Below, piece by piece: positions 3,237-53,805 of a DNA stretch of 64,000 nucleotides. Origin of the DNA: Patescibacteria group bacterium (GTDB lineage Bacteria; Patescibacteriota; Patescibacteriia; SG8-24); NCBI GenBank assembly GCA_041667185.1, contig JBAYFM010000005.1, forward strand, positions 9,285 to 73,284. Direction: 5' to 3'. Both the position numbers and the translations under genes were made by a program. Position 1 is the first letter of the stretch; the number at the start of each line of letters is the position of its first letter. The notes below the pieces were generated by a model. That model did no database searches and was not told the origin of the DNA. It saw only the letters and a program-made list of their open reading frames with translations.

Positions 3237-4178
3237 TCACTGGATGATCCGATACTCGTCCGGCTGCAAAGACAACGCCTGCGCGATCTGCGGAATATGC
3301 TCCGCGAGGCCTCTGCCCATAAAGACCAGTTTCGTCGGGCCGGAATATCTTTCCAGCTGCGCGAAATCGCAGCGGCCGAAGACGCAATTCGCGAGTTCGA
3401 TCCCCGCCGGCGTGCGCACCAGGCCTTTGATGCGATAAAAATATTCCGGCGGCAGGCCCTTGAACAACGCTTCGACAGCCGCGCGTTCATAACTCCGATC
3501 GGTCACGATCTGAAAAACTTCGACCTCGCGTTCGTGGTGTTCCGGATCGCGCCCCCGCTCGGCGAGCGCGACCTCTTCGGCTTTGGCGAACAGCCGCGAA
3601 TCGATGCCGAAGATGACGTCTGGACTCACCCGCCCGTGGTTGGTCTTGATCTTCGGCGTGGTCAGATTCAGCTCGTAAACGTCGTCGAGCGCGGTCTCGA
3701 GCTGGCGCTCGGTCAGAAGTTCGTGCTTGTTCACGAGGATCAGGTCCGTATACTGGGCCTGGATCTTCGCAGTGAAACTCTTATCGCGGTAGCCGGTGAA
3801 ATTCAGCACGTCGATCACGGTCACGATGCCATCGAGTTTCAAGGTCTGCGGATGACGATGGATCTCGACGGCGATCGGCGCCGGATAAGCCGAGCCGGAG
3901 GTCTCGACGATGATCCGGTCCGGATCGTATTTGGCGACGATCTCCTCGAGCGCCTCGCCGAGCCGGCCGACGAGCACACAGCACAAACAGCCGTTCAGGA
4001 TCTGCTGGACCTCGATATTGCTTTCCTTGGCGAGCTGGGAATCGACGTCCAGGTCGCCGAACTCGTTCTTCAGCCAGACGCAACGATAGGACGCCGGCAG
4101 CTGCTTGATCAGATTCAGGATGATGGTCGTCTTGCCGCTTCCTAGGTAGCCGGTGAAGACGGTGATGGGCGTGGGCAT
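3237..4178 (-). CDS. CobW/COG0523 G3E-family metallochaperone GTPase
   Basis: GYLGSGKTT Walker A. GCLCCV CxCC motif. CobW C-terminal-like region. Confidence 0.75.
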   Translation of the reverse strand: MPTPITVFTGYLGSGKTTIILNLIKQLPASYRCVWLKNEFGDLDVDSQLAKESNIEVQQILNGCLCCVLVGRLGEALEEIVAKYDPDRIIVETSGSAYPAPIAVEIHRHPQTLKLDGIVTVIDVLNFTGYRDKSFTAKIQAQYTDLILVNKHELLTERQLETALDDVYELNLTTPKIKTNHGRVSPDVIFGIDSRLFAKAEEVALAERGRDPEHHEREVEVFQIVTDRSYERAAVEALFKGLPPEYFYRIKGLVRTPAGIELANCVFGRCDFAQLERYSGPTKLVFMGRGLAEHIPQIAQALSLQPDEYRIIQ

Positions 4179-4202: not shown

Positions 4203-4664
4203 CTATTTATCCTCCGGTGCGGCGACGAGCAGCCAGCGAACATTCCGGCGGCGATGCCGACCATACCAGCGGCTGGTGAAATCTTTCATTCCGAGACGGT
4301 AACCGGAGCCGAGATCCGGATCATTCAGGATCAGTTTGCCATTCTCCAAGCCGATCACCACCGCGTAGTGACTGATCCCCTCTTCCGGCTCGCGATAATT
4401 GACGATTGCCGGTCGGCCGGCGGCCAGAGAGCGGCGCAGATCAGAAACATTGGCATTGCAGGCGGTCCGAACCCGAAGTCCGAAACTTCGGAGTCCGCGT
4501 GCCAGATCCGGACGCCGCGTGCCTGACCGGGAATTCGTATTCAACAGGACGCGAAGCCGCCGCTCGGAAACTCGCTGGCCCCAGAAACTCAAAATCATCC
4601 TCGCAGCCGCGGGGCCGCAGGTGAAGTCCGTGCTTTGGCGATGATACGGCACCTTCAGTTTCAT
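4203..4664 (-). CDS. peptidase C39-like (papain-fold cysteine peptidase) domain protein
   Basis: YHRQSTDFTCGPAAARMIL catalytic Cys region and downstream SHYAVVIG His region typical of C39-like domains. TATAAT immediately upstream of the ATG (possible leaderless transcript). Confidence 0.6.
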   Translation of the reverse strand: MKLKVPYHRQSTDFTCGPAAARMILSFWGQRVSERRLRVLLNTNSRSGTRRPDLARGLRSFGLRVRTACNANVSDLRRSLAAGRPAIVNYREPEEGISHYAVVIGLENGKLILNDPDLGSGYRLGMKDFTSRWYGRHRRRNVRWLLVAAPEDK

Positions 4665-4687: not shown

Positions 4688-4880
4688 CGGGTGGAGTTAG
4701 GGAGAGGTGGAGAGTGCTGAAGTGCGGGAGTGCTGGAGTTTTTATCGGGTCTCCCGCACTCCCCCACTCCTGCACTCTCCCGTTCGTTGAATCGGGGAGA
4801 GACGAAGAGGCGGAGTCAGATAAGCACTCTGACTCCGTCTCTCCCTGACTCCGTCTCTCCCACACTCCCTCACCCCCTCA
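4688..4880. repeat. dispersed composite inverted-repeat element, copy A
   Basis: Module 1 has GGAGTGCTG/GGAGTGCGGGAG arms around a TTTTTATCGGGTCTCCC core. Module 2 has GAGACGGAGTCAG arms. Same family as copies at 33.5, 35.0, 40.9, 42.8, 52.7 and 53.7 kb. Confidence 0.65.
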
Positions 4881-30120: not shown

Positions 30121-30753
30121 AATAATAAAAACTGCTTTTAACAGGGTCGTGCTGGATAAAAATAGCATAACGGCCGCTGAGTTACAATGAGATCGGCTTG
30201 GCCGGATCGATAGCGCCGTCTTCCCAGCCGCCGCTGCCGCTAGCACCACGGATAAGCTGAAGAGTGTCCCAGGCTCTCCGGGCCTTCGCTGGGTTTAGCC
30301 GAAATATTTTTGGGGACAGTCCCCAAAAAAAAGACTCCGTCACGAGTGTGGCGGGGTCTTGGCAACAAAAAAATCCCGGAAAACGAGCTGGAGATGGAAC
30401 TTGGGTTATTCCGCAAGCGGACTCCCAAGCGACGGCGCTTCCATTGGTTACTGCCAGTCGAAACCGGCTGCTACCGACTTCTGCGCCACCTAGACCTTAG
30501 AGCCGAAGCCCGGCGGTCTAGGTACCCCCTCCATTTCGTTTTCCGGGATCAATTTCAATGAACATAGTAATGTAGCACATCCTTTCAAGATTGTCAAGGG
30601 TTGATGACAATTATTGCTGCGGGCAGACTCAACCGCGCCTTATTTAGCCTTAAAGTAGCCCTTGATAGGCCCTAGTCGGCAAGTTAACAATCTATAACAA
30701 AACGGCCGGCCCCAGACCGACCGCTTGGTTTCTTTGACTATCCGCAACGCTGC

Positions 30754-32492: not shown

Positions 32493-33491
32493 TCAGGCTA
32501 AATCAAAGGCCAAAGCCAGCGAGCCCCAGACGCCGCGTAGTCCGATATTCTCATCGATGAGTTTGCGCGCGGCGATGGCTGCCTCGAGGACGCGGACCGC
32601 GCCGGCGGTCTGGAGCGCATCCGACCAGGCCGTGAGCGCCGGCAGCGCATCAACGTGCACGATCTTCTCGCCCGCGCCAGCGGCCACGAGCAGGACATCG
32701 CGCAGCAGTTCGATGAGCAGATCAAGGATCCTGTGCCCCTCGACCGCCGCCTCGTTGAACGGAAGTTTTTCCGGCACCAAACTCTCGAGCAGGCGCCAGC
32801 GCTCGGTCGGACCGGCGGCAGCGAGCTGCAGCAGCTGGTTGCGGCGTTCGAGCAGCGCTTCGAGCGCCGCCGGTTCGCGCCAGAGTTCGATAGCCTTGCC
32901 CGGGCAGCCGGCGGCGAGACGCGCCAATAATTCAGATCGGCCGATCTCGCAGCCGAGGCTGCGCAGATGTTCGGCGATCGCCGCGGCGGCCACGCGGCCG
33001 AAAGTCAGCACCTGGCAGCGCGACCTGACCGTCGGCGAGACCGCGGCGGCGGACTCGGCGAGCAGGATGATCAGGGTCTTGTCTTTCGGTTCTTCGAGGC
33101 TCTTGAGCAGCGCGTTCCCGGCTTCTTTATTCAACAGCTCGGCTCCGTCGAGAATCACGACCTTCCAGACGCCGGCCATGGCGCCGAGCGCCAGCCAGCC
33201 GCGCAGCGCATGGACCTGATCGAGAACGATATCCGCGCGCAGCTTGTCGGTCTTGGGATCGCGCCCGCGCTCGACGACGCGGAAATCCGGATGGCGGTCG
33301 AGCGGTGTTTCCGCGCCCAGGACCAATTCGGCCGCGCGCCGGGCCGCGGCCATCTTGCCGATCTGCGCCGGACCGGCGAAAAGATAGGCGTGCGCCAGCC
33401 GACCGCGCGAAAAAGCCCGGCTGAGAAGCTCCAGGTTCTGCTCGTGGCCGATGACGGTTGAAGATTGCGGTCCGGAAACGGCAGATTTCAT
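32493..33491 (-). CDS. holB: DNA polymerase III subunit delta'
   Basis: AYLFAGPAQIGK P-loop-like. LNKEAGNALLKSLEEP. Confidence 0.8.
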   Translation of the reverse strand: MKSAVSGPQSSTVIGHEQNLELLSRAFSRGRLAHAYLFAGPAQIGKMAAARRAAELVLGAETPLDRHPDFRVVERGRDPKTDKLRADIVLDQVHALRGWLALGAMAGVWKVVILDGAELLNKEAGNALLKSLEEPKDKTLIILLAESAAAVSPTVRSRCQVLTFGRVAAAAIAEHLRSLGCEIGRSELLARLAAGCPGKAIELWREPAALEALLERRNQLLQLAAAGPTERWRLLESLVPEKLPFNEAAVEGHRILDLLIELLRDVLLVAAGAGEKIVHVDALPALTAWSDALQTAGAVRVLEAAIAARKLIDENIGLRGVWGSLALAFDLA

Positions 33492-33537
33492 ATCTTGGCT
33501 CTCCGCAGTATAGCACTGGCCTTTGGCTAATGGCTAT

Positions 33538-33627
33538 TAGGAGAGACGGAGTCAGGAAGAGACGGAGTCAGGGAGTGCTGGAGTGCTGGAGTTTTTGTCG
33601 GGTCTCCCCGACTTCGCAACTTCGCGA
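33538..33627. repeat. dispersed composite inverted-repeat element, copy B (left border of orphan island)
   Basis: GAGACGGAGTCAGG (x2), then GGAGTGCTGGAGTGCTGGAG, then TTTTTGTCGGGTCTCCCCGAC core. Confidence 0.65.
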
Positions 33628-33659
33628 AATTCAAGCTCTTGTCGCATCACCAGCCACGA

Positions 33660-33688
33660 TTGACAAGCAGCGATATTTCTGCTAAGTT
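33660..33688 (+). promoter_or_regulatory. candidate sigma70 promoter plus downstream palindrome GTCAC-tagcc-GTGAC
   Basis: TTGACA, 17-nt spacer, TAAGTT. Inverted repeat at 33694-33708. Confidence 0.4.
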
Positions 33689-33740
33689 GCCCTGTCACTA
33701 GCCGTGACCAAGTCGCCCTTTCCCAAACCAGGAGGAACAC

Positions 33741-33983
33741 ATGAACGCGAACACCAGACAGGTCTTCACAAGCAGCAGCGTTGGCGCGGAGAACAAGCCT
33801 GAAAAGACCCTTTCGCCAGACGACCTGCTCAAGGAGATTGCGGACTCAAGATGGAACCGGCTCAGCCACAACTCCCGGTGTGTCGACGCGCGAGCCAAGC
33901 TCATCATCAAGCGCTTGCCGCTCTGGTTCTACAAGGAACCAAACAAGAACTGGTTCTACAAGGAACCGATCAAGAAAGGTTGA
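33741..33983 (+). CDS. small hypothetical protein (80 aa) with C-terminal micro-duplication
   Basis: SD AGGAGG 6 nt upstream. The WFYKEPNKN / WFYKEPIKKG duplication is 27 nt long. Confidence 0.4.
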   Translation: MNANTRQVFTSSSVGAENKPEKTLSPDDLLKEIADSRWNRLSHNSRCVDARAKLIIKRLPLWFYKEPNKNWFYKEPIKKG

Positions 33984-34077
33984 GGACTCGAGATGGAACC
34001 GGCTCAGTCACAACTCCCAGTGCGTCGACATGCGAGAAATGTATGTCCTCGGACGTTTGCCGCTCTGGTTCTTCTAG
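33975..34077 (+). pseudogene. frameshifted duplicate of the 3' half of the 33741 ORF
   Basis: About 100 nt at ~80% identity to 33838-33935, read in another frame (EDSRWNRLSHNSQCVDMREMYVLGRLPLWFF vs ADSRWNRLSHNSRCVDARAKLIIKRLPLWFY). Confidence 0.4.
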
Positions 34078-34103
34078 CCGGAACGACCCGCTCGACAGAA
34101 AAA

Positions 34104-34131
34104 CCTGGCATCAGCTTTGCCAGGTTTTTTT
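34104..34131 (+). terminator. rho-independent terminator
   Basis: CCTGGCA-tcagctt-TGCCAGG followed by a T7 tract. Confidence 0.55.
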
Positions 34132-34206
34132 ATTTGTTCTCAGCCAAATTTTGGATATTCAGCCTAAATAAGCCTAAATCATTGTCGATAACTTTGTCAG
34201 CCACCC

Positions 34207-34235
34207 TTGACAAAATACCAAATCCGTGCTATATT
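34207..34235 (+). promoter_or_regulatory. strong candidate sigma70 promoter in AT-rich segment
   Basis: TTGACA, 17-nt spacer, TATATT. Local GC is far below the window average. Confidence 0.5.
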
Positions 34236-34312
34236 ACTCGCACGATAGTCATTATCTAGAGTCGTACCTTACAACCAACCATGAGCCTAAAAAGCTCGAT
34301 CGGAGACAGACC

Positions 34313-34876
34313 ATGGTGTTTCATGACAACAGCGAGCCGAAGTACTATCTGCGCTTCTCGATGCGCAGACGCGGCACGATCAAGGACACCAACCTGATCG
34401 AGCGTGATCCCCTGAGGTACGAGGGTCGGACGAACGACGAGATCCTCATCGCCCGCGGCGAAAACCCGGAAGCCCTGATCGACTTCCGCAGCGCTGAGAA
34501 CGATCTGATCGCTTCGATCGACGACGATCTCGTCGAACCGACGTTCTGCTCGGCCAAGTCCGCTCCGGACGATGTGTTCGATCATGTCTACGAATATCTC
34601 TACTTGCAATGGCTCGACGAACTCGCAAACGATGATCTCGGCGAACGCAACGGCTTTCGCGACATCATGTCGCCGTCCTACGCGCCAGATGTCACCGTCG
34701 TCCCGCGATTCGTCGGCCGCCGGATCGATGATCTGCCCCGCCGCATCGGCAGCCAGCGTCTGGCCGAGTACACGAACCCCAACCTCATCGAGGATCGTCA
34801 GGACGGATGCCGCGCCGCGGAACTCCGCAGCTGGAAGAATCTGCGCATCCTCAGGCAGTTCGATCGCCACCGGTGA
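34313..34876 (+). CDS. orphan hypothetical protein (acidic, no recognisable domain)
   Basis: SD GGAG. Start at MVFHDNSEPKYY. A longer alternative start lies at 34226. Confidence 0.5.
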   Translation: MVFHDNSEPKYYLRFSMRRRGTIKDTNLIERDPLRYEGRTNDEILIARGENPEALIDFRSAENDLIASIDDDLVEPTFCSAKSAPDDVFDHVYEYLYLQWLDELANDDLGERNGFRDIMSPSYAPDVTVVPRFVGRRIDDLPRRIGSQRLAEYTNPNLIEDRQDGCRAAELRSWKNLRILRQFDRHR

Positions 34877-34954
34877 GCACGACCGAAGTCTCATGGTTCC
34901 CGCCTCTAAGAGACCCCTGTTCCGTTCTGGAATGGGGGTCTTTTCAATTTAAAG

Positions 34955-35046
34955 AGAGAGTGCGGGAGTGCAGGAGAGACGGAGTTGGGGAGATTTGAGA
35001 ACTTCGTCTCTCCCTGACTCCGTTTCTCCCTGACTCCCCCACTCCT
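34955..35046. repeat. dispersed composite inverted-repeat element, copy C (right border of orphan island)
   Basis: GAGTGCGGGAGTGCAGGAGAGACGGAGTTGGGGAG ... CTCCCTGACTCCGTTTCTCCCTGACTCCCCCACTCC. Confidence 0.65.
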
Positions 35047-35049
35047 AAA

Positions 35050-35080
35050 AAGTGTCAGCCTCTTGACACTATTTTTTATA
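35050..35080 (+). terminator. candidate terminator
   Basis: AGTGTCAGCCTCTTGACACT hairpin followed by ATTTTTTA. Confidence 0.4.
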
Positions 35081-35130
35081 TCCCCTACTGTCCGAGTACC
35101 CATGGGTCATTTAATTCACCTAACCCCGCT

Positions 35131-35745
35131 ATGCGGTACACGAAGTACTACTTCGCTTTGGGCGTCGTCGCGGCCGTCGGGACCTCGACTTTCGCTCTGA
35201 CCGCGCTGGCCTCCAAACCTATGCCAGCCACGCCGAAAGACGCCGAGAACGGGCTTCAAGCCCGACCGGCCGAACTGCGAGCCGCAGCCTTAAAGAATGT
35301 CCGCCGTTTCCGCGGACGCGACGAGCTGCGCCTGGACTACCAGGCGACATCGTCTAATCCTTATCGCGACGACGCGTCGCTCATCGAAACCTATGTCGAT
35401 GATGAGGGCAACGAGTATTGGGTCGATCGGGCAACTGACGCTTTGGTCCAAATGGGTCCGGCAGCGGGTGCCGATACGCCGGCATACGCGGCTCGACCGG
35501 AGGACCGACTTCCGGTCGCGGCGCTGAGGACTCTCGCGCTGCAATACGCGGAAGCGGCGCGTCCCGGTTTTGCGGAACGCCTGAGCACGCTGCATCCGCT
35601 CGAAGATAACCGGGAGCGGCGGATCTATTTCTTCCGCTGGGACGATTTCTCGGCGCCGGTCGGTGAATCCGAGCTGCCGCCGTTCCTCCAGGTGGCCATC
35701 AGGGCCGACGGGCGGCTGGCGAGCTTCACCGACACGCTGCGCTGA
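35131..35745 (+). CDS. secreted hypothetical protein
   Basis: N-terminal signal peptide. No recognisable motif. Confidence 0.55.
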   Translation: MRYTKYYFALGVVAAVGTSTFALTALASKPMPATPKDAENGLQARPAELRAAALKNVRRFRGRDELRLDYQATSSNPYRDDASLIETYVDDEGNEYWVDRATDALVQMGPAAGADTPAYAARPEDRLPVAALRTLALQYAEAARPGFAERLSTLHPLEDNRERRIYFFRWDDFSAPVGESELPPFLQVAIRADGRLASFTDTLR

Positions 35746-36274
35746 CCCAGCGCGGAACTATCAGGCGAAAACGAAAAAGACCAGGTCGCCGAGCGACGAA
35801 ATAAACATCAACTTTCAGAACAGTGAACGTCGGATATCGGCGGCCAACCAGCGGCTGACAGATGATGGATAGCTTGAGAGTCGCTGGTTCGGAGAGAGCG
35901 CGCTCTTTGACACGACCCGAAAACGAGACAAGACGAAAACCGACGGAGTTGCGTGGGAACTCCGCCGGTTTTTCGTTCGGTATGTCCTGACACGGCGATG
36001 GCGAGACCGCCGCCGGACACCTCCGTATTATGGTGTCCTTGCGGCGGTGGTCTCGCCGACGTCTAACTCACTCAAAAATTGCTTCGTTGACAAGCGCTCG
36101 GCCTGCGGAGGCGGCAAGGCATTGCCGCCTGGCCTCACGATAAGTAGACGAGTCTTCCGCAAGGTGTGCTGCGCACATTTTTAAAATGCCCGGCGTCTGA
36201 ATGCCAGGCAACGGACTTCTTTCATTTTATTTTCCTCACCTCCACGACGGACTAATCGCCGCAATCGAATTCAT

Positions 36275-40887: not shown

Positions 40888-40962
40888 TTGGGAGAGTGCT
40901 GGAGTGCGGGAGAGACGGAGTCACGTCGTTCGCGAACGACGTGACGGAGTCATGGAATTCTG
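40888..40962. repeat. dispersed composite inverted-repeat element, copy D
   Basis: GGAGAGTGCTGGAGTGCGGGAGAGACGGAGTC plus perfect 26-nt palindrome GTCACGTCGTTCGCGAACGACGTGAC. Confidence 0.6.
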
Positions 40963-41007: not shown

Positions 41008-42546
41008 TCAGACGCATTCACGGAACGCGTCTTCTTCGGGCAGATATTCCATCAGATCTATAGAGAACTCTTCACCACGATGTTTGACGAGTCCGTAGGT
41101 CAGCCGCTGGATGGACTCGACGCTGAGCCTCACCGCGAAGATCCGGATGAATCCGGAGATCAGGGCGAAGACCAGCATGATGGCGATCGGCGTCTTCAGA
41201 TCGGCCAAACCGTACTCCCAGATGCGCCAGCCCTCTTTCGGAAAGCTAGTGAACAGGAAAACGGTCATGGCTCCGACGAGCGCCGCCCAACCGGACATCT
41301 TGGTGATCTGTCGGGCGAGCCGCAATTCGCCGGTCTGGACGAAATGCAGGAGCACACGCACCGGCAATTCGAAACAGCGCAACCGCCGCCACTTGAGTTC
41401 GATCAGCGGCTCGACCAATCGGTACATGAGCGTCCAGGAGCCAGTGTTCACGTAAGTGCCGTCCGGATCGGAGGTGCGGCGCCACTCATGAGTATGACCC
41501 ATGATGATGGCTTTCGCTCCCCGCTCCTGACGCAGACGTTTCGCGTACTCGTCGATGCGACAAGCCGTGAAGGTCTCCAGCACGATGCGCAAAGTATTGC
41601 GGATGCTGGACTTGCGCCGGATGTCCCAAAAGGCGAACAATGCGTTGAACACGAAGCTCCACATGAGCACCGCGCCCGCGTAGAACGTCCAACCCCAGCG
41701 ATGCAGAGCCGCGTTCTTCCACAAGCCGCGATAGTTCAGGAGCCGACCGATCAGCGGATTCTTCTGCTTCAGGCTGATCATGGGACCGCACGCCAGATAA
41801 GAACCGTAAGGCTGGTTCAGGATCGGACGCTCGATCGGCACGCCGAAACGCTTCGTCAGGATCACCGCTTCCGGATCGACCCGATTCTGAGCCTCGGCGT
41901 TCATGCCGTGGTAATAAAGCACGCCGCGATGCAGATCCATGAACTCTGAACTGTGATCGATGAAGCGGATGCGGCTCGCGGCTTCGGCGTCGGTTCCGGC
42001 GATGCGCGCCCGGACCAGTTCCTGGACCTTTTTCCAGACCAGGATCAGGTCGTGGTTGCCGGCGAAAATGTCCAGGCGACAATTGGGCCGGCGCACGAAC
42101 CGGAACAGCGCGTCGAAGAAATCCGCGTGACCATCGATGATCTTGCTCATCTGCAGGACGCCGGTCTCTTCGTACGGCGGAACGGAGAAATGTCCGTTGA
42201 TCGAGACCGCGAGCGGATCGAACATGTCGCCCAGAAGCCGCAAGCGCAGCAGCGGGGCGGAACCATGAAGCGAGACCGCCTTGTCCAGGAACCGCACGAA
42301 CACGCGATCATCCGGGAAATCCTCGAGCGGATTCAGCGGACTGATCTTGGTCGGGACGTCGTACTCGAACAGACTTGCGCACCAGCGCCAGACCCGGCGC
42401 AGGAGCGACGGTCGGGAGCGCACGCGCGCCGCCAGACCCTCGGACATGTGCAGGTCGCTGACCACATAAATCACCTCATCGACTGCGGCCTTTCCGGTGT
42501 CACCGGAAGGCTGGTTGTTGGCAACCACTACTTCCGATGTCTCCAT
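41008..42546 (-). CDS. calcineurin-like metallophosphoesterase with C-terminal membrane region
   Basis: VVSDLHM, GDMFD, GNHD and MGHTHE metallophosphatase motifs. Three hydrophobic helices near the C-terminus. Confidence 0.7.
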   Translation of the reverse strand: METSEVVVANNQPSGDTGKAAVDEVIYVVSDLHMSEGLAARVRSRPSLLRRVWRWCASLFEYDVPTKISPLNPLEDFPDDRVFVRFLDKAVSLHGSAPLLRLRLLGDMFDPLAVSINGHFSVPPYEETGVLQMSKIIDGHADFFDALFRFVRRPNCRLDIFAGNHDLILVWKKVQELVRARIAGTDAEAASRIRFIDHSSEFMDLHRGVLYYHGMNAEAQNRVDPEAVILTKRFGVPIERPILNQPYGSYLACGPMISLKQKNPLIGRLLNYRGLWKNAALHRWGWTFYAGAVLMWSFVFNALFAFWDIRRKSSIRNTLRIVLETFTACRIDEYAKRLRQERGAKAIIMGHTHEWRRTSDPDGTYVNTGSWTLMYRLVEPLIELKWRRLRCFELPVRVLLHFVQTGELRLARQITKMSGWAALVGAMTVFLFTSFPKEGWRIWEYGLADLKTPIAIMLVFALISGFIRIFAVRLSVESIQRLTYGLVKHRGEEFSIDLMEYLPEEDAFRECV

Positions 42547-42653
42547 GAAAGCCTCCTTGTTTTTGGATTTTTAAGGAACTTTTAGGCGGAAAAGGGCCGA
42601 TTTACCCCTTACCGCAACATACTATTTAAGCACAAAATAGGCCGTTTGTCAAT

Positions 42654-43036
42654 GAGGGGAGTGCGGGAGAGACGGAGTTGGGAAGAGACGGAGTCAGGGA
42701 GTGCTGGAGTGCGGGAGAAATGGAGTTATCAAAACTCCCCCACTCCTCCACTCCCGCACTCTCCCATTCATTGGATCAGAGAGATGCGGAGAGACGGAGA
42801 TACGGAGTGCTGGAGTACTGAAGTGCTGGAGAGACGGAGTCACGTCGCTCGCGAACGACGTGGCGGAGTGCTGGAGTACTGGAGTTCTGGAGAGACGGAG
42901 TATCAAAACTCCCCCACTCCTCCACTCCCGCACTCTCCCGTTCAGTGGATCAGAGAGATGCGGAGATACGGAGTACTGGAGTACTGAGATGCTGGAGAGA
43001 CGGAGTCACGTCGCTCGCGAACGACGTGACGGGGTT
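42654..43036. repeat. dispersed composite inverted-repeat element, copy E (two tandem ~175-bp units)
   Basis: Each unit has module-1 arms around an ATCAAAACTCCCCCACTCC core, module 2, and palindrome GTCACGTCGCTCGCGAACGACGTG(A/G)C. Confidence 0.7.
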
Positions 43037-43053
43037 GCCAGGAACCGGGGAAC

Positions 43054-46410: not shown

Positions 46411-46675
46411 GGCGGCTTTGTCAAAAGAAATAGCCCCATCCCTGCGGGATGAGGCTCTTTCTTATGGTGGGTCGGCTGCCGGGGATTCCTCCTCCCCCAC
46501 CGCTCGCTACTTGGGGCCCCTGCCCCAAGTGCTCACGGCTCCTCCGGAGCCCGCCGCTCCGCAACGCACCATACTAGGTGCGTTGGCGGAGTCGGCTTCG
46601 AATCCCAGACGACCCTGCGCAAAAGAAATAGCCCCATCCCTGCGGGATGAGGCTCTTTCTTATGGTGGGTCGGCT
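46411..46675. repeat. att-like 57/58-bp direct repeats (tRNA-Lys 3' end plus terminator) flanking a 150-bp structured segment
   Basis: 46411-46467 and 46618-46675 are near-identical (CAAAAGAAATAGCCCCATCCCTGCGGGATGAGGCTCTTTCTTATGGTGGGTCGGCTG). The intervening DNA has four or more GC hairpins. Confidence 0.6.
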
Positions 46676-46738
46676 GGGATTCGAACCCAGGACCATCAGC
46701 TTAAAAGGCTGTTGCTCTACCAGACTGAGCTACCGACC
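46662..46738 (-). tRNA. tRNA-Lys (anticodon TTT)
   Basis: GGGTCGGTAGCTCAGTCTGGTAGAGC... anticodon loop CTTTTAA. T-loop GGTTCGAATCC. CCA encoded. Confidence 0.9.
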
Positions 46739-46777
46739 CATAACGAACTGGTTGTTGTCGAACTAACCGTCTTTATT

Positions 46778-47223: not shown

Positions 47224-47448
47224 TTACATCTCGCCGGTCTCGGCCAAAAAGTCGTCGAACCGGGCCTGCAGCGATTCCTTGATCGACATCAGATCCTCAT
47301 CGTCGTCCATCTCCTGGAACTGCATCTTATCCTCAAGAAGTTCCTCGATGATCTGATCCCACTGCTCCCGCTCGAAAGCGCCCTCGGCGGTCGCTTTCTC
47401 TTTGGCCTCCACGAACAGCTCTTCAAGATCGAACGCTAAATTATCCAT
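47224..47448 (-). CDS. small highly acidic hypothetical protein
   Basis: 74 aa, D/E-rich. No motif. Confidence 0.4.
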   Translation of the reverse strand: MDNLAFDLEELFVEAKEKATAEGAFEREQWDQIIEELLEDKMQFQEMDDDEDLMSIKESLQARFDDFLAETGEM

Positions 47449-47563
47449 AAATGCGGATTAAAATATGACGTGCGCAATGATAGCACGAATCGGTTTCCAG
47501 GCAAGCCCCCAAAGTGCTTTCTTAAAATGACCCGCAAAAATATCGCTCAACCAAGCTTAATAA

Positions 47564-47592
47564 TTGACTTTTGAAAAAATTCGTGCTAATCT
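47564..47592 (+). promoter_or_regulatory. candidate sigma70 promoter
   Basis: TTGACT, 17-nt spacer, TAATCT, in an AT-rich segment upstream of the 47617 gene. Confidence 0.45.
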
Positions 47593-47616
47593 AAAATTGT
47601 CATTAATCACAAAACT

Positions 47617-48426
47617 ATGTCCGGAGAACAACCGCGGGAACTCAACCTGGAGGATATCATCAACAAGACCGAACCGACCTCCAGCCAGGACAGCTCCAAA
47701 ACTGAACCGGCCGAAAAAAACCGCGATGCGGCCCAGGACGCTCAGCAGCCGGCTGCTGGCGAAGAATCCCGGCTGGCCAAAACCTCGGTCTTCCAAGCCG
47801 AGACCAAAAAGCTGGCTGATAAATACGAAGGCGTGCGCGACGAAGTGGCCCGCCTGTCGCAGGAACTCAACTCCGGAAAACTCGACCCGAAACAAGCCAA
47901 GTTCAAACAGGACTTCCGGGAAAACCTGAAGCAGGATTATTTCCGCGAGCTGGTCGACAGCGTCGTGACCAGCGACACCAAATTAGGGACGGAAGTCGTC
48001 AAACTGGGCATGGATTATCCCGAGATCGCCAAAGACCATCCGTACCAGGACATGCTCAAGGAGCTCAGCAACAACATCCTGGAGACGACCCAGGCCAAAA
48101 GCCAGTTCGAAGCCCTGATCGCGGGGTCGCAGACTGGCGAGGTCGCGGTCCAGAAGCTTCGCGAGCGGATCACACAGAACATGGATGGTTTCATGAAAGG
48201 CGCCAGGTCCAAACTGGAGAATCAGTTCGGAGCGCGGGGCGAGCGGGCGAAAAAACTGGCGGCCAACCGGGCCAAGATCCAGCCGCCCAAGGTCCTCGAA
48301 TTCAAGACCAAACGGCAGCTGCTGCGCGAGCAGCTCAAAGGTTTCTTCGACGAGGTCCAGGAGCGGCTCGGCAATAAACCCGAGGATCAAGAAAAAGAAA
48401 AGCCGGCGCGAGATAAAGCCGCCTGA
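47617..48426 (+). CDS. hypothetical coiled-coil protein
   Basis: 269 aa, K/E/Q-rich. Predicted long helices. No TM. Confidence 0.55.
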   Translation: MSGEQPRELNLEDIINKTEPTSSQDSSKTEPAEKNRDAAQDAQQPAAGEESRLAKTSVFQAETKKLADKYEGVRDEVARLSQELNSGKLDPKQAKFKQDFRENLKQDYFRELVDSVVTSDTKLGTEVVKLGMDYPEIAKDHPYQDMLKELSNNILETTQAKSQFEALIAGSQTGEVAVQKLRERITQNMDGFMKGARSKLENQFGARGERAKKLAANRAKIQPPKVLEFKTKRQLLREQLKGFFDEVQERLGNKPEDQEKEKPARDKAA

Positions 48427-52597: not shown

Positions 52598-52836
52598 GGG
52601 GTGAGGATGCAGAAGTGCTGGAGTGCGGGAGTTCGGAAGTGCGGGAGTACAGGAGTTTTTGTCGGGTCTCCCCGACTCCAGAACTTCAGTACTCCAGGAC
52701 AGGTGCCTGACACCGAAGGACTCAGGAGTGCGGGAGTTCGGAAGTGCTGAAGTGCTGGAGTTCGTGTCTGGTCTAACTGACTCCAGCTCTCCAGCACTCC
52801 AGAACTTCAGAACTTCAGATTCCCGTTCATAAAGAA
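52598..52836. repeat. dispersed composite inverted-repeat element, copy F
   Basis: GGAGTGCGGGAGTTCGGAAGTGCGGGAG...GGAGTTTTTGTCGGGTCTCCCCGACTCC core ... CCCGTTCATAAAGAAAAGCGCC terminus. Confidence 0.65.
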
Positions 52837-52886: not shown

Positions 52887-53633
52887 TCAGATTTCCGAAC
52901 TGGTTTGATCTTGCTTGTCTTTGGCTATGAGCCAGCGGCCAAGATGCCGCCAGATGTCGAGGCGTGTCAACAACATGACCAATCCGTAGACCAGACCGAA
53001 GCCCAAACCAAGGACCAGGACGTAGACCAGACTGTAAACCAGACCATAGACTAGACCTAAGCCCAAACCGAGGACTAGGCCGGGGACCAGACCGAAGCCC
53101 AAACCAAGGACTAGGCCGGGGACCAGGACGTAGACCAGGCCATAGACCAGACCATAGACCAGACTGTAGACCAAGCCGTAGACCAGACCGAGGACCAATC
53201 CGTAGACCAGACCGAAGCCCAAACCAAGGACTAGGCCGGGGACCAGGACGTAGACCAGGCCGTAGACCAGGCCAGGGACCAGACCGATGATCAGACCAAC
53301 GATCAAGGCACTTTGAAGATCATCCTCAATGCTTGATCGAATGGTTACAACCAGCACGATGAGAGCGGCCAAGATAGCTGCCGCTGGCACGTCCCACCAG
53401 CGGGAGACAGCGAAAGGCAACTCTAGCGTCCAGTTTTCTGCTATTGGAATGATGGCTGTCGAGGGCACCGAACCGGTGCACAGGTACCAGACCGTCCAGA
53501 AAGCGGCAGTCAGACTCGCGGCCCGAAGGGCCCATTTGAAGAAAATCCGAGCCAGTTTTCTCTTTGGAATCATTTGACGCTCCTTTGTCGTTTGTGAAGG
53601 TTCAAGATCCGCACGCAAGATGCGGGCCACCAT
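52887..53633 (-). CDS. membrane protein made of ~25 tandem GLVY/GLVP/GLGF tetrapeptide repeats
   Basis: Two N-terminal TM helices, then (GLV[YP]GLVxGLG[FL])n for ~110 aa, then a short charged tail. The internal MIPKRK is an alternative start. Confidence 0.6.
   Translation of the reverse strand: MVARILRADLEPSQTTKERQMIPKRKLARIFFKWALRAASLTAAFWTVWYLCTGSVPSTAIIPIAENWTLELPFAVSRWWDVPAAAILAALIVLVVTIRSSIEDDLQSALIVGLIIGLVPGLVYGLVYVLVPGLVLGLGFGLVYGLVLGLVYGLVYSLVYGLVYGLVYVLVPGLVLGLGFGLVPGLVLGLGLGLVYGLVYSLVYVLVLGLGFGLVYGLVMLLTRLDIWRHLGRWLIAKDKQDQTSSEI
52975..53290. repeat. tandem 12-nt coding repeat (GTAGACCAGACC variants) with ~120-nt higher-order units
   Basis: Direct inspection. The unit GACCGAAGCCCAAACCAAGGACTAGGCCGGGGACCAG recurs three times. 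Confidence 0.6.
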
Positions 53634-53667: not shown

Positions 53668-53805
53668 GGAGTACGGGAGTGCTGAAGTACTGGAGGACTG
53701 AAGTGCTGAAGTGCTGGAGTGCTGGAGTCGGGGAGACCAGACAAAAACTCCTGTACTCCCTCACTCCAGTACTCCCCCACTCCCGCACTCTCCCGTTCAT
53801 AAAAA
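53668..53805. repeat. dispersed composite inverted-repeat element, copy G (inverted relative to F)
   Basis: GGAGTCGGGGAGACCAGACAAAAACTCC is the reverse complement of the F core. The terminus CCCGTTCATAAAAAAGCGCC overlaps the murG stop codon. Confidence 0.65.

Follow-up and report, generated by a model that had tools for sequence, protein, structure and literature searches.

Genes and expression signals beside holB

In a 64,000-nucleotide stretch of Patescibacteria DNA, the whole of which is here called the window, the spacer between holB and a conserved neighbour gene of 204 aa contains two independent transcription units, one with an 80-aa gene and the other with a 187-aa gene. The preliminary description had placed this segment between holB and a secreted-protein gene, and both assignments hold: holB (32493-33491, minus strand) matches PF13177 in a Pfam profile search (E 1e-31), and the 204-aa protein has, by inspection, a hydrophobic N-terminal signal or anchor. 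The features of the segment and its margins, in window coordinates, are as follows.

33507-33536, minus strand: holB promoter-like site, TAGCCA-18-TGcTATACT (promoter scan), divergent from the segment
33540-33626, unstranded: left 8-nt-periodic array, seven GGAGNNNN units and then three degenerate complementary units
33660-33688, plus strand: small-gene promoter P1, TTGACA-17-TAAGTT plus TGn extended -10 (pattern scan)
33741-33983, plus strand: small ORF, 80 aa, AGGAGG 6 nt upstream of the start
33835-33935, plus strand: tandem-duplication copy 1, in frame, the present 3' half of the small ORF
33923-33976, plus strand: 27-nt in-frame micro-duplication (WFYKEPNKN / WFYKEPIKK), period 27, 2.0 copies, 92% matches
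33977-34077, plus strand: tandem-duplication copy 2, +1 frame, no start codon, within the 3' UTR
34097-34131, plus strand: intrinsic terminator of the small gene, -19.7 kcal/mol, z = -4.8
34161-34179, plus strand: 10-bp-phased direct repeat AGCCTAAATA/AGCCTAAAT, lying some 30-45 bp upstream of the -35 of P2
34195-34235, plus strand: promoter P2, TGTCAGCCACCCTTGACA-17-TGcTATATT, with a palindrome spanning the -35 (promoter scan)
34242-34312, plus strand: 5' leader of the 187-aa gene, the transcription start being placed from the -10 position
34313-34876, plus strand: gene of the 187-aa acidic protein (pI 5.0), founder of a five-member family
34908-34944, plus strand: intrinsic terminator of the 187-aa gene, -26.5 kcal/mol, z = -4.3
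34957-35048, unstranded: right 8-nt-periodic array, a long near-perfect hairpin
35051-35070, plus strand: hairpin AGTGTCAGCCTCTTGACACT with a T-run, z = -4.2, including the TTGACA of the 204-aa neighbour's promoter
35131-35745, plus strand: conserved right-hand neighbour gene, 204 aa, exported or anchored protein; context only, outside the module

Comparison loci, labelled L004, L005, L006, L014 and L015, lie on short metagenomic contigs from uncultured Patescibacteria. Two near-consensus sigma-70 promoters had been proposed, and both are present where described, but P1 does not deserve the term because its -10 hexamer matches just three of six consensus positions; its TTGACA and TGn-TA are nonetheless kept in L004 and L005. 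P2 (TTGACA-17-TATATT at 34207-34235, with a TGn extended -10) agrees with the consensus at 11 of 12 positions plus the TG, and is unchanged across four lineages. The pattern TTGACA-N14-TGnTAnnnT occurs four times in the 64 kb, against 0.01 expected by chance, and the glyS promoter shares the lineage-typical type of those in the module. We considered and rejected an origin of P2 as a duplicate of the neighbour gene's promoter, the likeness being confined to the 18-20-nt TGTCAG…CTTGACA palindrome. The phased repeat upstream of P2 is kept in L004, L005 and L015; it could serve as an activator site or in the manner of an UP element. At the margins, the TATACT -10 of the holB promoter-like site is found, by reading, at the same position in L004 and L005, and the sequence of the hairpin at 35051-35070 recurs in L004, L005, L014 and L015.

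The leader of the 187-aa gene has a CA-rich core (34253-34297, 45 nt) with a short hairpin behind it; the core is 90-97% identical to that of L004, and the motif CGTACCTT.CAACC is kept as far as L015. No significant fold was detected in the leader relative to shuffled sequence (z about 0), and a structured 5' leader or riboswitch was discarded, the only recurring element being a hairpin of 4-6 bp. Rfam matches in the segment all score far below the gathering thresholds and mostly involve miRNA-precursor models, which we judge spurious because such models fit the long hairpin. An upstream ORF or N-terminal extension was likewise rejected: past the presumed transcription start, the in-frame stretch offers no start codon, in L005 it is interrupted by an in-frame stop, and an out-of-frame ATG is not conserved.

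Both units end, as first described, in clean terminators. The one behind the small gene is potentially bidirectional, since it combines an A-run and a T-run, and has an equivalent hairpin in L004; the one behind the 187-aa gene shows stem-preserving changes in L004 and L005 and is visible in L015. Hexamers at 17-nt spacing, conservation across loci and a GC hairpin with a T-run downstream together point to sigma-70 units. Each gene has a strong housekeeping-type promoter (TTGACA, 17-nt spacer, extended -10) and ends in an intrinsic terminator of its own. The Shine-Dalgarno sequences are also conserved at the orthologous loci. Expression of both genes is read from consensus signals only.

Composition speaks against a recent import. 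The GC content had been thought to fall far below a background of about 65%; a dip to 39% does exist (34101-34300, one of two such dips in the window), but the window mean is 60.3%, and the low GC is limited to the intergenic promoter stretch between the two genes. GC3 is 0.78 in the small gene and 0.79 in the 187-aa gene, compared with 0.73-0.87 in surrounding genes. The GC of the 187-aa gene by codon position (0.63/0.39/0.79) follows the pattern of native genes, and a 212-aa ORF antisense to it has a GC3 of 0.62.

The larger product had been presented as an acidic orphan of 188 aa with no recognizable domain; its length is 187 aa, and the remainder stands. Reading frame and motifs are conserved across the five sequences of its family, whose products are predicted to be soluble and acidic, of about 190-215 aa. 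The sole invariant parts are an acidic helix (D90, Y93, Y97, L101 and A105) and a basic C-terminal segment (IG.RR … SWK … Q..RH). AlphaFold2 models reached a pLDDT of 29 with the single sequence and 41 with a three-sequence alignment, and are unusable.

Tandem duplication in the small gene

The 80-aa ORF with its strong Shine-Dalgarno sequence, the 27-nt micro-duplication and the frameshifted second copy of about 100 nt were all recovered as first reported. Homologues of the small ORF are a 76-aa ORF in L004 (E 2e-6) and an 82-aa ORF in L005, pairwise comparisons being significant at E 2e-6 to 1e-3. The predicted product is hydrophilic and of about 65-82 aa across lineages. Conservation lies in its C-terminal half, W..L..(D/N)(P/S)(N/R/Q) … (G/K)R(L/R)P(L/F), with the C-termini GRLPLWFF (ancestral, window), GRRPFEF and GRLPFFHPQ.

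Copies 1 and 2 are 78% identical and spaced by 142 nt. The translation of copy 2 ends in …GRLPLWFF, directly followed by a stop; in a MAFFT alignment the 3' end of the L004 small ORF aligns with copy 2 and not with copy 1, and copy 2 has the GRLP motif and the stop-then-terminator layout common to L004 and L005. Removal of one 142-nt unit leaves a 64-aa in-frame ORF. On these alignments, the frameshifted copy 2 represents the original 3' end of the small gene. A 142-nt (3n+1) tandem duplication of the 3' half pushed this end out of frame into the 3' UTR. Copy 1 was left without its stop codon and acquired a lysine-rich tail, in which the micro-duplication now sits, and the protein switched from acidic to basic (pI 5.7 to 9.9).

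The 22 differences between the copies are spread 7/8/7 over the codon positions and thus give no sign of selection on both copies; 13 of them fall within 24 nt, a clustering that simple drift does not explain. Translation of copy 2 by re-initiation or frameshifting was dismissed, there being no start codon in frame and no convincing slippery site at the GGU-UGA junction. The copies were also compared with DGR repeats and set aside as such, for their differences involve all four bases and not template adenines only; a Pfam search of the segment for a reverse-transcriptase domain was negative.

Orthologous loci, homologues and flanking repeats

Orthologous loci display a variable gene content at a fixed place. 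In L004 the order is RRF-BNR-holB, a lipoprotein gene, the 76-aa ORF, a 200-aa homologue of the 187-aa protein and the homologue of the 204-aa neighbour. In L005 holB is followed by the 82-aa ORF, an extra small unit with its own promoter and terminator, and a 215-aa homologue. In L015 a 202-aa homologue directly adjoins holB, with no small ORF, and a 253-aa neighbour follows; L014 has a partial homologue and then the neighbour homologue. In L006 both genes are absent and holB, 51% identical to that of the window, directly adjoins the neighbour homologue. Counted as orphan units per spacer, the series runs from none in L006 through one in L015, two in the window and two plus a mini-unit in L005 to three in L004. 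Small and large genes occur together in three lineages, and the small gene is an optional companion, as one lineage (L015) is without it. A synteny comparison, suggested at the outset as a check on acquisition, gives a divided answer: the module is absent from one genome, but four more contigs, representing three further lineages, keep the 187-aa gene next to a holB that is 55-82% identical to that of the window. Because at least one relative does not have it, the segment appears as a lineage-restricted addition between holB and the neighbour, although loss and gain both fit, the module-less genome being a single one. Rates of change differ sharply within the locus. Relative to the nearest relative, L004, the flanking proteins are 82-91% identical and the module proteins just 42% and 35%.

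The families themselves are very small. Four relatives of the 187-aa protein (L004, L005, L014 and L015), all beside holB, emerged when an exhaustive scan was combined with a search by DNA pattern, and the resulting count of five members covers about 15 billion predicted proteins plus a metagenome scan; no non-syntenic homologue appeared among 1.8 billion cluster representatives. Word-indexed homology searches with both proteins returned only the query itself, a three-member profile search added no further members, and family-profile scans of GTDB representative genomes, JGI metagenomes and IMG/VR gave no matches. The metagenome family-profile scan overlooked the L005 contig, which a later DNA-pattern search recovered. 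Neither protein matched Pfam, NCBIfam, PHROGs, PADLOC, PDB, phage, plasmid or IMG/VR entries, and no toxin or antitoxin domain was found in any family member with Pfam, NCBIfam and PADLOC. A likeness to PCNA in PDB (E 0.07, non-significant) was discounted, as it was gone with the five-sequence profile.

The segment had also been described as bracketed by repeats. Arrays do lie on both sides, and over 51 nt an arm of the left one shows 80% complementarity to one belonging to the right array, but they do not mark the boundary of a unit. The right array folds strongly (-61.8 kcal/mol, z = -9), and the left one is degenerate and folds at the level of shuffled sequence (z = 0). Such 8-nt-periodic hairpin arrays occupy seven intergenic regions of the window. 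The left array is absent at the same position in L004, L005 and L015, and the right one has a degenerate counterpart in L004 and none in L005 or L015. We therefore dismissed the idea that a mobile unit has these arrays for its terminal inverted repeats, since they belong to a dispersed family and are absent or vestigial at orthologous loci that carry the genes. More plausibly, they would be later-arriving copies of a genome-wide intergenic hairpin family.

Origin and possible roles of the module

Taken together, these comparisons suggest that the segment is probably a vertically inherited, lineage-restricted stretch of chromosome in the variable spacer between holB and its neighbour, carrying two independent monocistronic genes. 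The horizontal acquisition first envisaged is, as a recent event, not supported, given native GC3, a fixed site beside holB in the carriers, and nothing in the way of integrase, tRNA or target-site duplication: ORF inspection and Pfam revealed no integrase or transposase gene within 33492-35130, tRNA genes come no closer than about 8 kb, and no target-site duplication or direct-repeat att sites were found, the sequences just outside the arrays not being direct repeats. A phage derivation, also raised, finds no support in the searches of PHROG, phage, plasmid and IMG/VR collections. The 187-aa protein changes very fast while its promoter, the phased repeat and the CA-rich, largely unstructured leader stay near-unchanged, and from this conservation we infer that expression of the gene is high and probably constitutive. 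With low confidence, the protein may be a cytoplasmic binding or adaptor factor, with the invariant acidic helix and the basic segment as candidate surfaces. The very fast divergence of the module proteins may stem from a part in an arms race and not from a housekeeping-like role.

The arms-race theme is taken further by an explanation that we regard as possible but rather unlikely, in which the genes are old, horizontally acquired conflict cargo (host/phage interaction, defence or anti-defence) in an integration or recombination hot spot, with a composition since ameliorated to that of the host; evolution would then be fast because the genes take part in conflict. The absence from L006, the lineage-dependent content of zero, one, two or three lineage-specific genes, a divergence about four times faster than that of the flanking proteins, the acidic product, and homologues that are exclusively syntenic in the cluster representatives would all suit such cargo. 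It is harder to reconcile with the native GC3, the fixed position in all carriers, promoters of the type seen at glyS, and the failure to find mobility genes, att sites, a target-site duplication or any match in PADLOC, PHROG, phage, plasmid and IMG/VR searches.

Somewhat less probable still is that the spacer serves as a gene nursery, whose orphan genes arose de novo or diverged beyond recognition. Each gene would have formed when a terminator was paired with a consensus promoter and leader of the lineage-typical kind, and the rise from no orphan unit to three across the lineages is what this reading builds on. The expression signals would be the main target of selection, with the proteins still free to explore sequence space, and the small protein's new tail, a product of the out-of-frame duplication, would mark one more step along this path.

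The invariant adjacency to holB in all carriers invites a functional reading, which we hold improbable: as lineage-specific replisome accessories, the genes would stay beside holB, which encodes the clamp-loader delta', because of shared function or regulation, and a hydrophobic motif at the C-terminus would let the small protein bind the beta sliding clamp. The known terminal motif for clamp binding, QL(D/S)LF, has a conserved Gln followed by Leu/Phe hydrophobics, in flexible termini (PMC6511837). The small-protein C-termini loosely resemble it, and the hydrophobic residues are present, but the defining glutamine is missing from all three, and in the window genome the motif is no longer C-terminal. 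Furthermore, L015 dispenses with the small gene, the sole PDB hint (PCNA) faded with a better profile, and adjacency to holB may equal simple inherited synteny.

A toxin-antitoxin-like pair had been put forward; the small and acidic proteins would then neutralise each other, and the adjacency of two small genes, one with an acidic product, their co-occurrence in three lineages and shared fast evolution would agree with it. Yet the genes are separate units 330 nt apart, with the small-gene terminator and P2 (34207) between them; L005 has an additional transcription unit in that interval, in L015 the large gene occurs on its own, toxin and antitoxin domains are missing from the Pfam, NCBIfam and PADLOC results, and the small protein is hydrophilic, unlike type I toxins. 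We consider such a pair very improbable. A reading in which the ORFs are accidental and the two strong promoters yield functional non-coding RNAs instead is scarcely credible, for although leader 34253-34297 is better conserved than coding sequence and high-GC genomes yield long spurious ORFs, such as the antisense one here, the sense frames have a native codon-position GC pattern, protein-level similarity outlasts DNA similarity, the Shine-Dalgarno is conserved, Rfam gives spurious hairpin matches only and the leader has no significant fold.

The analysis disposes of a false lead: the segment does not appear to be a cassette of mobile, phage or toxin-antitoxin type, and the repeats on either side of it do not form the ends of an element. 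It also delimits two very small protein families, both restricted to a single Patescibacteria clade, with fixed holB synteny and unusually conserved expression signals. About a third of the genes in such organisms have no annotation; should the two turn out to be abundant, they would become candidate players in clade-specific biology. As a compact series of zero to three orphan genes in one spacer, the locus could serve studies of orphan-gene origin, and the small gene offers a clear case of a gene end remodelled by out-of-frame tandem duplication.

Several known systems bear comparison. The bracketing arrays recall REP/BIME repeats in being dispersed, strictly intergenic, hairpin-forming and often placed after terminators or between promoters, but are unlike them in that they comprise tandem 8-nt units (GGAG plus four variable bases) of few types, their arm lengths vary between copies and no associated transposase was identified. 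TIGR arrays, reported in phages and parasitic bacteria, have units of about 36 nt, made of two different 8-12-nt repeats and two 9-nt spacers, beside a Nop-domain Tas gene (PMC12045711). Conserved and variable bases alternate at a short period in our arrays as in those of TIGR-Tas; we nevertheless rejected the identification, given a period of 8 nt, self-complementary hairpins and no adjoining Nop-domain gene in Pfam searches. With genomic islands and MITE-like cassettes the segment shares inverted repeat arms on both sides, an AT-rich stretch, orphan content and absence in one relative; unlike them, it has native codon composition and no integrase, tRNA or target-site duplication, and its apparent ends belong to a dispersed hairpin family missing at orthologous gene-carrying loci. 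Type II toxin-antitoxin systems are likewise formed by two small, adjacent, lineage-restricted genes, one with an acidic product, but here there is no operon, each gene 330 nt from the other with its own promoter and terminator, no known domain, and a partner that is dispensable in one lineage. The orphan genes of variable spacers in Patescibacteria/CPR offer a further parallel: they have no homologues outside a narrow clade, diverge fast, use ordinary promoters, Shine-Dalgarno sequences and terminators, and occupy spacers whose gene content varies among relatives. The module stands apart from them in its exceptionally small family of five sequences and in regulatory DNA that is far better conserved than the proteins.

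The gene pair and its expression signals

The window belongs to a metagenome-assembled genome of Patescibacteria, and the same stretch occurs at 99.9-100% identity in three other public assemblies, which add no variation. Two genes, whose products NCBI names hypothetical proteins WCT10_02610 and WCT10_02615, lie between holB and a neighbour encoding a 204-aa protein.

Features of the locus
32493-33491 (-), holB, left neighbour (DNA_pol3_delta2 match, E 1e-31)
33540-33626, left array of GGAGNNNN octamers
33660-33688, promoter P1 of the small gene, TTGACA-17-TAAGTT
33741-33983, 80-aa ORF (small gene), AGGAGG 6 nt upstream
33923-33976, 27-nt in-frame micro-duplication
33977-34077, copy 2 of the small ORF's 3' half, lying 142 nt downstream in the +1 frame with 78% identity
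34097-34131, terminator after the small gene
34101-34300, AT-rich stretch, 39% GC
34207-34235, promoter P2 of the large gene, TTGACA-17-TATATT with TG
34313-34876, 187-aa ORF (large gene), pI 5.0
34908-34944, terminator after the large gene
34957-35048, right octamer array, hairpin of -61.8 kcal/mol
35131-35745 (+), right neighbour gene, 204-aa protein with N-terminal hydrophobic segment

Four corrections apart, the preliminary description had observed these features accurately, including the strong Shine-Dalgarno sequence and micro-duplication of the 80-aa ORF, its frameshifted second copy of ~100 nt, and a terminator closing each transcription unit. Both promoters, described as near-consensus sigma-70, are present, but the -10 hexamer of P1 agrees with the consensus at only 3 of 6 positions; the acidic orphan protein has 187 residues, not 188, and window GC is 60.3% rather than ~65%. 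The only other window stretch with GC down to about 39-42% is 47401-47700.

Neither protein matches Pfam, NCBIfam, PHROGs or PADLOC at E ≤ 1, and the large one has no recognisable domain, as first described. Two homologues give sub-threshold Pfam matches only (E 0.01 and 2.6), PDB sequence and profile searches return nothing significant, phage collections, plasmid collections and IMG/VR contain no match, and the AlphaFold2 models are unusable (pLDDT 29 and 41). When 1.84 billion cluster representatives were searched exhaustively with phmmer, the 187-aa protein had two relatives, P0003 (45% identity, E 1e-27) and P0004 (32%, E 9e-6), and a DNA pattern search with the conserved neighbouring promoter added two loci with relatives, L014 and L015. 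Two motifs recur in all five large-protein sequences, D..Y...Y...L...A in an acidic helix and IG.RR…SWK…Q..RH at the C-terminus, and the gaps among the sequences keep the frame. Upstream of the large gene, the related loci L004 and L005 carry small-ORF homologues of 76 aa (E 2e-6) and 82 aa, respectively, which match one another (E 1e-3). GC3 is 0.78 and 0.79 for the two ORFs versus 0.73-0.87 in neighbours, and GC is distributed over codon positions as in native genes; the long ORF antisense to the 187-aa gene (GC3 0.62) lacks that pattern. The native GC3, the frame-keeping homologues of the large protein and the small-ORF homologues show both ORFs to be real protein-coding genes.

The pattern TTGACA-N14-TGnTAnnnT has four matches in the window against 0.01 expected, two of them being P1 and P2. 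The P2 region is invariant in four lineages, with phased AGCCTAAATA repeats, TGTCAG….CTTGACAAAA, and TGCTATATT, and a segment of the leader, 34253-34297, shares 90-97% identity with L004, equalling the best-conserved coding stretch. This leader is CA-rich and has no significant fold; a short hairpin precedes the Shine-Dalgarno sequence, and its stem persists in L005 and L015 while the bases differ. Such conservation of leader and P2 suggests selection for strong expression. Three promoters, those of the 187-aa gene, of the 204-aa gene and of glyS (34195-34212, 35053-35068 and 30592-30609(-)), have a palindrome made of the TTGACA -35 element and an inverted partner, TGTCA(G), 6-8 nt upstream. 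Kept across lineages, and also found in L004, L005, L014, L015 and L006, the palindrome may serve as an operator or be a hybrid of terminator and promoter.

The holB spacer among relatives

Gene order at related loci
L004: RRF, BNR protein, holB(-), extra 225-aa lipoprotein gene, 76-aa ORF, 200-aa homologue, start of the 204-aa neighbour
L005: holB(-), 82-aa ORF, extra promoter-plus-terminator mini-unit, 215-aa homologue, neighbour's promoter
L015: holB directly divergent from 202-aa homologue, then neighbour; no small ORF
L006 (GTDB Patescibacteria genome): holB directly divergent from neighbour's homologue, ~300 nt AT-rich spacer; both module genes absent

Three further lineages (L004/L014, L005 and L015), whose holB is 55-82% identical to the window's (55% in L015), keep the large gene at the same place next to holB, and the small gene is found in L004 and L005; in L006 (holB 51%) the synteny comparison proposed at the outset finds the module missing. 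Fixed position and native GC3 argue against a recent date for the horizontal acquisition first suggested; ancient insertion and loss in L006 cannot be told apart. Relative to L004, the flanking proteins are well conserved (RRF 91%, holB 82%, BNR protein 82%, neighbour's N-terminus 89%) versus 42% for the 187-aa and 35% for the small protein.

The spacer holds zero to three lineage-specific transcription units. The 225-aa lipoprotein-like gene (L004 3871-4548), without Pfam match and with its own promoter and terminator, sits between holB and the small ORF and is inserted in the L004 lineage only. An extra unit in L005 (1085-1285), separating the small ORF from the 215-aa gene, comprises a consensus promoter (TTGACA…TGCTATTCT), ~150 nt and a terminator; it holds a Shine-Dalgarno sequence ahead of a start-stop mini-ORF, ATG-TAA, and could be a small RNA.

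Intergenic repeats

The island had been described as bounded by repeat copies. These belong to one family of dispersed, strictly intergenic arrays (tandem 8-nt units of GGAG plus four variable bases) present in seven window regions (4693-4871, 33540-33626, 34957-35048, 40893-40960, 42658-43047, 52612-52819 and 53668-53794) and in L006 (790-851). Most pair a GGAG-type with a complementary CTCC-type arm into long hairpins, down to -62 kcal/mol; the left array (33540-33626) now folds no better than shuffled sequence. With both arm types in every element, any two arrays mimic inverted repeats, hence the complementary arms of the left and right arrays (pair I4). L004 has only a degenerate right-hand copy, and L005 and L015 none, though the large gene is present; since module genes occur with a degenerate copy or none, the arrays are later arrivals, not cassette ends. 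We know of no described repeat family with this 8-nt substructure. TIGR arrays were rejected as a match, having ~36-nt units and an adjacent Nop-domain gene (PMC12045711).

Octamer hairpin arrays also lie on both sides of two genes without Pfam match, encoding a 512-aa protein (41015-42553(-)) and a 248-aa membrane protein (52887-53633(-)) composed mainly of tetrapeptide repeats, GLVY/GLVL, with a 12-nt period in the DNA; it may simply be that arrays accumulate in the ample spacers next to lineage-specific genes. A 530-nt gene-free stretch that follows the 204-aa gene (35746-36274) contains several strong hairpins and a ~100-nt element (especially 36089-36186) with three L006 copies (1767-1802, 3713-3784 and 4454-4551), two of which flank a 36%-GC 195-aa gene that resembles a genuine foreign insert; the one Rfam match was sub-threshold (Xoo2, E 0.33). 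Identical direct repeats of 57 nt (46422-46478/46620-46676) and 75 nt (46786-46860/46913-46987) lie close to a tRNA-Lys gene (46663-46739).

Small-gene remodelling and the nature of the module

Copy 2 is the ancestral end of the small gene, because MAFFT pairs the L004 small ORF's 3' end with it and not with copy 1, it retains the GRLP motif of the family, it terminates just ahead of the terminator as in orthologues, and removal of one 142-nt unit restores an orthologue-like in-frame ORF of 64 aa (pI 5.7; the present 80-aa protein has pI 9.9). A 3n+1 tandem duplication pushed this end into the 3' UTR, copy 1 thereafter reading through into former 3' UTR sequence and gaining the 27-nt duplication. 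In its own frame copy 2 lacks a start codon, and its 22 differences from copy 1 spread 7/8/7 over codon positions, which gives no evidence for protein-level selection on both copies. Thirteen of the 22 fall within 24 nt (post hoc Fisher p = 5e-5), where orthologues too vary most; a diversity-generating retroelement is excluded, the differences not being adenine-specific.

The module consists of two units, each monocistronic and with a conserved sigma-70 promoter and terminator; reading frames are conserved, synteny is fixed, and the proteins diverge fast. Both proteins would be soluble, cytoplasmic and strongly, probably constitutively, expressed, the large one acting as a binding factor by way of two invariant parts, an acidic helix and a basic C-terminal segment, and the small one as a dispensable companion. 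A replisome-accessory role would rest only on adjacency to holB and on the small protein's C-terminus, which loosely resembles a clamp-binding motif but lacks its defining glutamine (PMC6511837). The toxin-antitoxin pair or phage module of the preliminary description is unlikely, given separate transcription units, a dispensable partner, no relevant domains and no phage, plasmid, IMG/VR or PADLOC matches. The module is a clade-restricted orphan gene pair in a variable spacer, of modest interest, mainly as a clean case of turnover among orphan genes and of a C-terminus remodelled by out-of-frame duplication.
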